A stretch of DNA of 64,000 nucleotides from an uncultured Myxococcia bacterium (GTDB taxonomy: Bacteria > Myxococcota_A > UBA9042 > PHBI01): contig OW818691.1 of NCBI GenBank assembly GCA_942493285.1, positions 7,126,484 to 7,190,483 on the forward strand, written 5' to 3'. A model generated the notes under the pieces. That model was not told the origin of the DNA and did not search any database. It worked only from the letters and a program-made list of their open reading frames with translations. Positions 14,114 through 15,553 of this stretch are shown here, in pieces; position 1 is the stretch's first letter, and each line of letters starts with the position of its first letter. The position numbers and the translations under genes are program-made.

Positions 14114-15553
14114 ATGGTCGCCAACGACAAAATGAAGCTCCTCCGCGTCGCCGTCGTGCAAGACCGCCGGGTGGTGGAAGAGCGCCTCATCCGGGGCGAA
14201 GGTGACATCACCATCGGTACGGGCACGAAGAACACGTTTGTCGTGAAGGGCAACGTGCCCAAGCAGACGACGGTCTTCGAAGGCCGGGGTCACGGGCGCT
14301 TTGCACTCGTGTTCGAGCGGGGCCAGGACGGTCGCATCGAGCTCGAGTCGGGCAGCGACAAGTTCACGCCGAGCGAGCTCGCGGACAAAGGCATGGCCCA
14401 GAAGAAGGGCAAGGCGTTTGCGATCGAGCTGAGCGACAAGGCGCGTGGCAAGGTGTCTGTCGGCGACGTGTCGATCCTGTTCCAGTACGTCGACCCCCCG
14501 AATGCGGCGATGCGTGCACCCCTGCCGATGGCGGTCAAGGGTGGCATCGTCAACCAGATCGAGTGGCCATTCCTCTACATCATGGCGGCCTCGTTCATCC
14601 TCTTCGGAGGGTCGACGACCGGGCTCGACATCTGGTGGAAGCAGACGGGCCAATACTATTACAGCCCGTCCTCGGCCGAGCGCACTCGGCTCTACGATCT
14701 CATCCGGGCCGAGGTGCAGGCCAAGAAAGAGAAGGAGCCCGAGAAGGAGAAGCCGGAAGACGAGAAAAAAGAGGACGCTGCCGTTGCGGCTGAAGCTGCC
14801 GAGGCCGCACCGGCTCCCGAGCCCGAGAAGCCCAAGCCCGGCCCCTCCAAGAAGCCTGCGGCACGAGTCGGCAAGGACGCGCCGCGCGAGACCAACAAGA
14901 CCAAGCTCGCGGCCGCGGTGAAGCAGAAGACCTTCCTCCATGTGCTCGGCACGACCGGTGGCACTGGGCCGGGCGAGCTCGACACACTGGGCGGCGGTGT
15001 TCACGCGCAGAACATCGCGAACGCGTTCGACCTCGAGGGTGGTATTGCCCAGAACCGCGAGAGCGGGGCCGCTGGTGGTGTCTTCGTCGGTGGGCCGCAG
15101 GCGGCCGAGGCGGGTGACGGGCAGAAGTACAAGACCTTGTCGGCAGGCGAGGCCGGCGGCGAGCGCCTCACGACGACCCAGGTCAAGACGGCCGAGAAGG
15201 CCAGTGAAGTGAAGATCAACGCGAACGTGCGAGACGGCTCGGTGTCGGGTCAGGAGGGCGCTGGCTCGATCGACAAGGACTCGGTCGCGCGAGTGTTCTC
15301 GCGCCGCAAGAGCGCCATCAAGTACTGCTATGAGCGGGCGCTCAAGCTGAACTCGAACGTCAAGGGCAAGGTTGTGATTCGTTTCACGATCGGCCCTGCT
15401 GGGCGCATCACCTCGGTCCAGGCGTCGCAGAACACGACGGGTGATCCGGGTATCGCGGACTGCATCATCGAGAAGGTGCAGGGTTGGCGCTTCGACCCGC
15501 CCAGCGGCGGCTCGGTCACGTTCTCGTACCCGTTCCTGCTCGACACGAAGTAA
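14114..15553 (+). CDS. TonB-C-domain membrane protein with cytoplasmic N-terminal domain (GltG/GltJ/NfsG-like)
   Basis: RBS AGGAGA precedes ATG at 14114 (the ORF-track start at 14072 is rejected). About 160-aa N-domain, TM (FLYIMAASFILFGG), K/E-rich then Pro-rich linker, and a C-terminal TonB-C-like fold (…RKSAIKYCYERALKLNSNVKGKVVIRFTIGPAGRITSVQ…GWRFDPP…). Confidence 0.65.
   Translation: MVANDKMKLLRVAVVQDRRVVEERLIRGEGDITIGTGTKNTFVVKGNVPKQTTVFEGRGHGRFALVFERGQDGRIELESGSDKFTPSELADKGMAQKKGKAFAIELSDKARGKVSVGDVSILFQYVDPPNAAMRAPLPMAVKGGIVNQIEWPFLYIMAASFILFGGSTTGLDIWWKQTGQYYYSPSSAERTRLYDLIRAEVQAKKEKEPEKEKPEDEKKEDAAVAAEAAEAAPAPEPEKPKPGPSKKPAARVGKDAPRETNKTKLAAAVKQKTFLHVLGTTGGTGPGELDTLGGGVHAQNIANAFDLEGGIAQNRESGAAGGVFVGGPQAAEAGDGQKYKTLSAGEAGGERLTTTQVKTAEKASEVKINANVRDGSVSGQEGAGSIDKDSVARVFSRRKSAIKYCYERALKLNSNVKGKVVIRFTIGPAGRITSVQASQNTTGDPGIADCIIEKVQGWRFDPPSGGSVTFSYPFLLDTK

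Follow-up and report, generated by a model that had tools for sequence, protein, structure and literature searches.

A GltG-related, TonB/TolA-type protein with a cytoplasmic FHA-like domain, encoded beside an ExbB/ExbD-type motor in a Glt-like cluster of an uncultured Myxococcia bacterium

The genes aglR, aglQ, aglS, gltC, gltD, gltE and gltG were proposed by Luciano et al. 2011 (PMC3169522) as a core complex ancestral to the gliding and the sporulation machines, and the same complex was found in non-gliding bacteria, with its function there reported as unknown (PMC3169522). Myxococcus xanthus also carries the extra copies G4 (MXAN_1922), G5 (MXAN_1327) and M2 (MXAN_3003-5), which are without known function (PMC3169522, PMC3858216); a literature search for the function of G4, G5 and M2 returned nothing later than "unknown". 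Described here is a gene (hereafter the target) for a 479-residue GltG-like protein in a 64,000-nucleotide stretch of DNA from an uncultured Myxococcia bacterium (GCA_942493285.1, contig OW818691.1, positions 7,126,484 to 7,190,483; hereafter the window), where it closes a gene cluster that matches this core complex.

GltG (PglI, MXAN_4867) of M. xanthus is required for gliding (PMC3169522) and contains a transmembrane (TM) helix (residues 330-348), a disordered periplasmic stretch and a domain that resembles the C-terminal domain of TonB (residues 544-640) (PMC11761067). In the models of the latter work, a 2025 structural-modelling paper on the Agl-Glt machine, the distal FHA domain of GltG contacts GltI, a cytoplasmic scaffold, at several sites, the central FHA domain and the TM helix bind three subunits of the AglR pentamer, residues 428-543 wrap GltD, and the TonB-like domain is paired with a GltF strand; the GltG domains were compared there with PDB 3gqs and 7zc8 by Foldseek at the level of E ~1e-2 (PMC11761067). 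Interactions of AglR with GltG (PMC3169522) and with NfsG, the sporulation paralogue of GltG (PMC3858216), were found in two-hybrid assays.

The target is proposed, with a probability of about 70%, to be a GltG paralogue that acts, in the manner of TolA or TonB, as the output protein of a Glt-type core complex, a machine that would span the envelope and draw its power from the ExbB/TolQ-like and ExbD/TolR-like proton motor encoded immediately upstream. Its single TM helix would associate with the ExbB-like pentamer, and its membrane-proximal FHA-like domain would dock on the cytoplasmic face of that pentamer with no reading of phosphothreonine. The disordered Glu/Lys/Pro-rich spacer would span the periplasm and the peptidoglycan, the GltD-, GltE- and GltC-like TPR proteins and a small GltF/CglF-like protein would be held, probably by beta-strand addition, by a conserved mid segment together with the TonB-C-type domain, which is capable of a disulfide, and proton flow would be converted to pulling or movement of the periplasmic/outer-envelope assembly. 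These contacts are taken by analogy from the published GltG-AglR two-hybrid data and the AlphaFold models of the paralogue, and the direction of energy transfer is likewise inferred. The output of the machine in the window is probably other than gliding itself, because the cluster is without gliding-specific genes and Myxococcus has the family beside GltG and NfsG.

Domain anatomy, folds, family membership of the parts and a conserved gene neighbourhood were observed for the target. The open reading frame (ORF) begins with the ATG at 14114 and ends with the stop codon at 15551-15553, exactly where a preceding reading of the bare letters (the sequence-only reading) had placed it. This ATG is well supported as the start, because a Shine-Dalgarno-like AGGAGA stands 5 nucleotides upstream, 64 relatives (438-527 residues) align to ~96-100% of the target from residue 1 on, and the third-position G+C content (GC3) of 0.85 is comparable to that of the adjoining genes. 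Target and relatives have the N-terminal motif M-x(4-6)-K-(I/L)-L-R in common, and the worry raised in the sequence-only reading, that the true start might lie after the TM segment, is thereby removed. An alternative TTG start at 14072 was rejected, as it would add just 14 residues shared by no homologue, and an antisense ORF (13700-15610, minus strand) was rejected as a high-GC shadow frame that failed the gene-like composition filter (GC3 > 0.72, second-position G+C content < 0.60, non-overlapping frames), which the plus-strand frame passed. Judged by its homologues the target is not a chance ORF, since 82 family matches were obtained in a word-indexed search and 1,486 cluster representatives by its N-domain.

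An AlphaFold2 model of the target as a single chain, built on a 58-sequence alignment (A1), contained two confident folded domains, residues 8-128 (pLDDT, the predicted local distance difference test, ~85-92) and residues 370-478 (pLDDT ~87-95); for residues 8-128, values of ~90-97 were recorded as well. The sole hydrophobic segment comprises residues 151-175 (best Kyte-Doolittle window 153-171) and is held in a long predicted helix, residues 139-178. No signal peptide was found before the N-domain, and the topology is most simply taken as N-in/C-out, because a signal peptide is lacking and the TonB-type domain with two invariant Cys residues is C-terminal to the TM helix. The cytoplasmic part then amounts to 150 residues, not the ~160 that had been estimated, and is made up of the folded domain (~120 residues) and a juxtamembrane stretch (residues 129-150); the substantial N-domain expected ahead of the membrane is thus present. 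The charged, Pro-rich spacer that had also been expected was located at residues 206-260 (22% E, 22% A, 18% K and 18% P; family-wide linker composition 22% E, 19% K, 14% A and 13% P), of which residues 208-257, with pLDDT < 50, are predicted to be disordered. On sequence conservation the following region, residues 261-310, is more than spacer: its mean top-residue frequency is 0.51 vs 0.36 for the spacer, its motif residues are V269, T273-F274-L275, G279, A304 and F305, and two helices (258-272 and 291-306) were predicted in it with low confidence. By analogy with GltG residues 428-543, which wrap GltD in the published models, the GltD-like TPR protein is a candidate ligand of this mid segment.

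The TonB-C fold ascribed to the C-terminus was supported by several comparisons. The NCBIfam model NF033768 (AgmX/PglI C-terminal domain) matched residues 386-476 over profile positions 1-91 of 92 with 97.8 bits (cutoff 40), and two Cys residues (C405 and C450) were invariant in 58/58 relatives. TIGR01352 (tonB_Cterm) gave 27.5 bits, narrowly above its cutoff of 27.1, and Pfam TonB_C (PF03544) gave 23.8 bits (E = 6e-5), slightly under its gathering score of 24.6. When the family profile was compared with the PDB, every match at E <= 5e-4 was a TonB C-terminal domain (E 1e-6 to 5e-4), and Foldseek with the full model returned the C-terminal domains of TonB (FusB, Helicobacter, Neisseria, Pseudomonas and E. 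coli), HasB and TolA, with probability up to 1.0 and a template modelling score (TMt) of up to 0.70.

At the other end of the protein, the modelled N-domain has the FHA beta-sandwich fold, in line with the guess of an FHA-like or other beta-rich fold. Its structure matches included Rv1747, MDC1, Ki67, EmbR, GarA and others, the same families were returned by Foldseek with the full model, and PDB 3gqs and 7zc8 were among the top Foldseek matches of that model, at the same E level of ~1e-2 as reported for GltG. The fold assignment rests on structure comparison, because Pfam FHA (PF00498) gave no match at E <= 10 to the whole protein or to the isolated N-domain; no other Pfam family matched the N-domain at E <= 10 either. 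Family-invariant residues in this domain are E23, R24, G35, F55, G112, F123 and Q124, and N40, R74, R111, L122 and P129 are nearly invariant. An exhaustive profile search with the N-domain gave 1,486 cluster representatives at E <= 1e-3 (959 at E <= 1e-10), the best matches being mostly proteins of 440-500 residues with the domain at the N-terminus.

For the comparison with the Glt proteins, the target was aligned with NCBIfam equivalog models. Its best full-length match was GltG (NF033760), with residues 17-477 aligned to profile positions 212-646 of 650 at 132.3 bits (cutoff 650), so that the first ~210 profile positions, which hold the Pfam-detectable FHA domain of GltG, are without counterpart in the target. 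Three FHA-bearing GltG-like proteins (P0065, P0067 and P0068) do match PF00498. A hidden Markov model (HMM) of the N-domain matched the membrane-proximal domain of such proteins (P0077, residues 299-405, E = 1.4e-12; P0076, residues 316-377, E = 1e-3) and their distal FHA domain marginally (E 0.2-0.5), and an HMM of the C-domain matched all of them (E 1e-27 to 1e-34); in an hhalign comparison of the whole-family alignment with a GltG-like protein, the C-domain was the only part aligned. An identity with GltJ was rejected: the GltJ equivalog (NF033761) gave 21.7 bits vs a cutoff of 450, confined to the linker and the C-terminal region, and no Pfam domain besides the C-domain was detected in the target, the ZnR and GYF domains of GltJ not having been searched for specifically. 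By these profile comparisons the target is a shorter GltG paralogue, neither GltG nor GltJ, that retains the equivalent of the central FHA domain, directly before the TM helix, and not the scaffold-binding distal one. The architecture of GltG/GltJ type invoked in the sequence-only reading therefore survives as GltG type. That reading had further supposed that a cytoplasmic partner is coupled through the N-domain to a periplasmic TPR scaffold; large TPR proteins are indeed encoded in the cluster, but a separate partner is unsupported by what is known of the paralogue, since the N-domain corresponds to the motor-proximal domain of GltG. The most likely partner would be the ExbB-like motor next to it, contacted on its cytoplasmic face, because the target keeps only the equivalent of the central, AglR-docking domain. 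Coordinates of the target, its parts and the neighbouring genes are collected in Table 1.

Table 1. Coordinates (window numbering) of the genes of the cluster and of the parts of the target.
Feature	Position	Strand	Basis
Secreted protein, 287 residues (u287), head of cluster, no Pfam/NCBIfam match	2820..3683	+	conserved in synteny
GltC-like TPR/coiled-coil protein, 858 residues	3680..6256	+	NCBIfam GltC E = 6.8e-12, 44.9 bits vs cutoff 450; Pfam TPR
GltD-like TPR scaffold, 1239 residues (size as in GltD), YbgF/CpoB-type repeats	6256..9975	+	Pfam TPR; TIGR02795 131.5 vs 90.1; syntenic orthologues
GltE-like periplasmic TPR protein	9972..11123	+	NCBIfam GltE 84 bits vs cutoff 225; Pfam TPR
Small secreted protein, 97 residues, GltF/CglF-like candidate	11191..11484	+	NCBIfam best CglF, weak, E = 5e-4; synteny at 39 loci
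MotA/TolQ/ExbB-family proton-channel subunit, AglR-like	11860..12498	+	Pfam MotA_ExbB E = 8.7e-23; NCBIfam best TolQ, under cutoff
ExbD/TolR-like stator subunit 1, without transmembrane Asp (PIMG)	12568..13233	+	Pfam ExbD E = 3.3e-5, just under cutoff
ExbD/TolR-like stator subunit 2, transmembrane Asp kept (SLMD)	13421..14053	+	Pfam ExbD E = 6.8e-9
Shine-Dalgarno-like AGGAGA, 5 nucleotides before ATG	14103..14108	+	read from sequence
Target gene, GltG-like TonB/TolA-type transducer, 479 residues	14114..15553	+	ORF list, translation, homologues, NCBIfam
Cytoplasmic pseudo-FHA domain (predicted), residues 8-128, beta-sandwich with one short helix	14135..14497	+	
Juxtamembrane segment, conserved, residues 129-150, consensus PPxxPRPQLPAxxRGG	14498..14563	+	alignment A1
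Single TM helix, residues 151-175, WPFLYIMAASFILFGGSTTGLDIWW	14564..14638	+	hydropathy, AlphaFold2 helix 139-178
Glu/Lys/Ala/Pro-rich periplasmic spacer, predicted disordered, residues 206-260	14729..14893	+	composition, pLDDT
Conserved periplasmic mid segment, residues 261-310, motif ..V..KTFLHVLG...DTL.....AF	14894..15043	+	conservation
TonB-C-type / AgmX-PglI C-terminal domain, residues 369-479	15218..15550	+	NF033768, TIGR01352, Pfam TonB_C, PDB profile, Foldseek

A co-directional, tightly spaced set of genes, several of whose start and stop codons overlap, ends with the target, and a MotA_ExbB gene and two ExbD-like genes stand directly upstream of it, which is the gene linkage known for TonB and TolA. 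All seven gene types of the core complex were found on one strand within 3680-15553; since the individual Glt scores lie below the equivalog cutoffs, the members are regarded as paralogues. Both ExbD-like proteins (210-221 residues) are above the typical ExbD length. Orthologues of the first read PIM[G/A/S/N] at the position of the missing Asp, and the Asp of the second is conserved in its orthologues; because this split is kept at all syntenic loci, those of KSB1 and Fibrobacterota included, the sequences suggest that the stator is a heterodimer in which a single Asp can be protonated. In the 97-residue secreted protein, conservation across the 39 syntenic orthologues was confined to the C-terminal ~50 residues (IIELEAMVIEGKVAKPQVFYVLGRSR...PF). 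The head gene u287 occupied the same cluster position in Myxococcus, Corallococcus, Anaeromyxobacter, Sandaracinaceae and other loci (34-49% identity). Elsewhere in the window, an unrelated 663-residue protein (41842-43833) with two canonical Pfam FHA domains (E = 1.5e-36) adjoins a hybrid histidine kinase (43902-45812).

Synteny was surveyed at 80 loci from species-representative genomes by searching with all window proteins. The complete order (u287, GltC-, GltD- and GltE-like genes, the gene of the 97-residue protein, the ExbB-like gene, two ExbD-like genes and the target) was found in ~20 Myxococcota assemblies, including a metagenome-assembled Anaeromyxobacter genome. Loci of Myxococcus, Corallococcus, Sandaracinaceae and Polyangiales had the same order with the motor genes elsewhere, the small-protein gene there abutting the target homologue, and at those of KSB1 and Fibrobacterota a TonB-C protein was accompanied by a GltD-like gene and the motor. 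In the clusters of cultured Myxococcus and Corallococcus (L018, L021, L023, L024 and L027), motor genes were absent and the small-protein gene abutted the GltG-like gene. Because these orthologous clusters are without motor genes, the orphan M2 motor of M. xanthus (MXAN_3003-5; PMC3858216) might be their missing partner.

The architecture at each locus was determined by extending the matching ORF and scanning it with the region HMMs, and three classes were distinguished. Class 1, to which the target belongs, consists of a pseudo-FHA domain, a TM helix, a linker and the C-domain (mostly 430-515 residues; ~45 Myxococcota loci, including five Myxococcus/Corallococcus species). Class 2, which is GltG-like, has a distal FHA domain in addition to the central pseudo-FHA domain, the TM helix and the C-domain (645-715 residues). 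Class 3 (320-367 residues) has an N-terminal TM helix, no cytoplasmic domain and the motor adjacent, and was found in KSB1 and Fibrobacterota (L050, L063, L069, L070 and L077). A rarer variant with three tandem pseudo-FHA copies (910-937 residues) was represented by one locus of an uncultured Myxococcales bacterium (L025, 8615-11347) and by the cluster representatives P0083-P0085.

Several points weigh against the proposed role of the target as a motor-driven output protein. The TM helix does not show the SxxxH motif of TonB and TolA, whose TM helix couples to ExbB/TolQ: it reads SFILF, and SxxxH was present in the TM region of 14/58 relatives (as SFLxH in the relatives inspected). Class 3 shows that coupling to the motor does not in general require a cytoplasmic domain, and because these relatives are without one, the pseudo-FHA domain is probably an added element, regulatory or stabilising, rather than a requirement for coupling. 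An HMM of the mid segment (residues 255-310) gave nothing significant with the GltG-like proteins. The proposed docking of the FHA-like domain on the motor is based on the AlphaFold model published for a paralogue and not on experiment, and both structure predictions made here were of single chains. Finally, a single operon was neither supported nor refuted by the promoter/terminator scan, in which no plus-strand terminator-like site was found inside the cluster and the total count was not above that of shuffled sequences.

Among the alternatives, an improbable one that keeps more weight than the others is that the cluster is a Tol-Pal-like envelope-maintenance system, in which the target would be the functional counterpart of TolA and would tether or remodel the outer membrane instead of transporting surface material. 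TolQ is the best NCBIfam match of the ExbB-like protein, GltG has been likened to TolA (PMC11761067), and the core complex is known from bacteria that do not glide (PMC3169522) and was met, in the loci surveyed, in KSB1 and Fibrobacterota. Moreover, the GltD-like protein scores above the cutoff of TIGR02795, the YbgF/CpoB TPR model (131.5 bits vs 90.1), in four stretches. However, no TolB or Pal homologue was found in the cluster, and the TolQ match lies far under its cutoff (38.6 vs 221); besides, this alternative addresses the output only and is compatible with the coupling mechanism proposed for the target. The TIGR02795 match, as an observation on its own, hints at a Tol-Pal-like ancestry of the periplasmic scaffold.

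A working, phosphothreonine-binding N-domain, which would place the motor under Ser/Thr kinase control, e.g. via a phosphorylated tail of the ExbD- or ExbB-like proteins or via a cytoplasmic regulator, is very unlikely. Ser/Thr kinases are abundant in myxobacteria, the FHA fold is clear, and the 27-residue cytoplasmic tail of the second ExbD-like protein contains Thr and Ser. Against this, phosphothreonine readers have the residues Gly-Arg, Ser-x-x-His and Asn-Gly, of which the Gly alone (G35) is kept across the 58 sequences, with the Arg replaced by Q/T/S, the Ser-x-x-His histidine by T/K/L and the Asn-Gly asparagine by D/E, as mapped through an hhalign alignment of the N-domain profile to the distal true FHA domain of GltG-like proteins (E = 2e-4, probability 46%). 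The invariant residues of the family's own, E23, R24, F123 and Q124, sit elsewhere, and the silence of the Pfam FHA model at E <= 10 points the same way. Loss of phosphothreonine reading is suggested by this moderate-confidence alignment, a classical FHA function is unlikely, and the label "pseudo-FHA" is used because the FHA fold is present without the conserved phosphothreonine-binding residues.

Still harder to sustain is the view of the target as an ordinary TonB with merely an added N-terminal domain, serving nutrient uptake by energising TonB-dependent receptors of the outer membrane. The TonB_C and TIGR01352 similarity, the TonB matches in the PDB, the Pro/Glu/Lys-rich spacer, the ExbB-ExbD-type genes directly upstream and the name "TonB family protein" given to relatives by some sources would all agree with it, but the cluster is without a TonB-dependent receptor, the neighbours conserved in ~20 genomes are GltC-, GltD- and GltE-like TPR proteins, the C-domain is of the AgmX/PglI subtype with its two Cys residues, GltG is the best full-length model, the His of SxxxH is absent and the 150-residue cytoplasmic part is conserved. 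Equally poor is the prospect that the target is the organism's true GltG (or NfsG) and the cluster the gliding (or spore-coat) machine itself, since, for all that GltG is the best equivalog match and the neighbours resemble GltC, GltD, GltE, GltF and AglR/Q/S, the score of 132 bits vs 650 and those of the neighbours (45 vs 450, 84 vs 225) are far under the Glt cutoffs, the distal FHA domain is absent, no GltA/B/H/K-type barrel, GltI or GltJ gene was found next to the cluster, the FHA-bearing GltG-like proteins (645-760 residues) form a separate and distant group (E ~1e-20 or weaker), the Myxococcus species at the five motor-less loci carry the short family in addition to GltG and NfsG, and M. 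xanthus G4/G5 and M2 are dispensable for motility and M2 for sporulation too (PMC3169522, PMC3858216).

The unusual architecture of the target is thus genuine, but systems of this kind have been described before, and the current understanding of them is unchanged. Proton-driven 5:2 motors (ExbBD, TolQR, MotAB and AglRQS) are a current focus, and how one motor type is coupled to different outputs is an open question. The target belongs to the least studied Glt branch, the non-motility copies of the core complex, reported since 2011 to be of unknown function. Added here are the observations that this branch keeps the motor-proximal FHA-fold domain of GltG and not the scaffold-binding one, that the N-domain is a large family (~1,500 cluster representatives) matching no Pfam family, and that in many Myxococcota the motor genes lie inside the cluster, which predicts which motor serves which transducer. 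The target cluster may serve as a cleaner minimal system in which to examine how an FHA-fold domain would dock on a 5:2 motor, and it draws attention to the unstudied, non-motility Glt-like clusters.

More speculatively, the short proteins of the target's class, together with the clusters that have their own motor, could constitute a distinct and widespread Myxococcota envelope machine, neither gliding nor spore-coat, with the membrane-proximal pseudo-FHA domain acting, at the cytoplasmic side of the 5:2 proton motor, as a clamp or gate specific to the lineage. Were this so, outer-membrane maintenance or movement of surface polymers would be candidate outputs, and the pseudo-FHA domain would be an added control element and not belong to the basic coupling, because relatives outside the Myxococcota are without it. 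To our knowledge, control of an ExbB/TolQ-type motor by an FHA-type clamp or gate is not known from Ton or Tol systems.

Compared with the known systems, the target shares with TonB and TolA the N-terminal membrane anchor, the extended Pro/Glu/Lys-rich periplasmic spacer, the C-terminal TonB-C fold and the linkage to ExbB/TolQ and ExbD/TolR homologues. TonB and TolA have a short cytoplasmic tail and a TM helix near residue 10-35 with SxxxH, whereas the target has 150 cytoplasmic residues, the TM helix at 151-175 with no His, a C-domain with two invariant Cys residues, and TPR-protein neighbours instead of TonB-dependent receptors or TolB/Pal. The FHA-fold domains of the type III secretion proteins YscD, PrgH and MxiG and of the type VII secretion protein EssC have no detectable sequence relationship to the target; those proteins form the rings of secretion basal bodies, and nothing suggests a ring for the target.

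With the core complex, the window cluster shares the same seven gene types in one co-directional cluster and the occurrence in non-gliding lineages; it differs from the core complex and the M. xanthus regions by one extra conserved gene (u287, which has Myxococcus homologues) and from the fetched Myxococcus and Corallococcus loci by having the motor genes inside, and a match to one specific M. xanthus region was not achieved. Relative to GltG, the target is ~160-280 residues shorter, is without the distal Pfam-detectable FHA domain modelled to bind GltI, has a mid segment that is not recognisably similar, and lies in a cluster with motor genes inside and no gliding-specific genes nearby. With GltG and NfsG it has in common that it is a single-pass inner-membrane protein with an FHA-fold domain just before the TM helix, a long disordered periplasmic linker rich in Pro and charged residues and an AgmX/PglI-type TonB-C domain, encoded beside GltD-, GltE- and GltF-like genes and tied to a TolQ/TolR-type motor.

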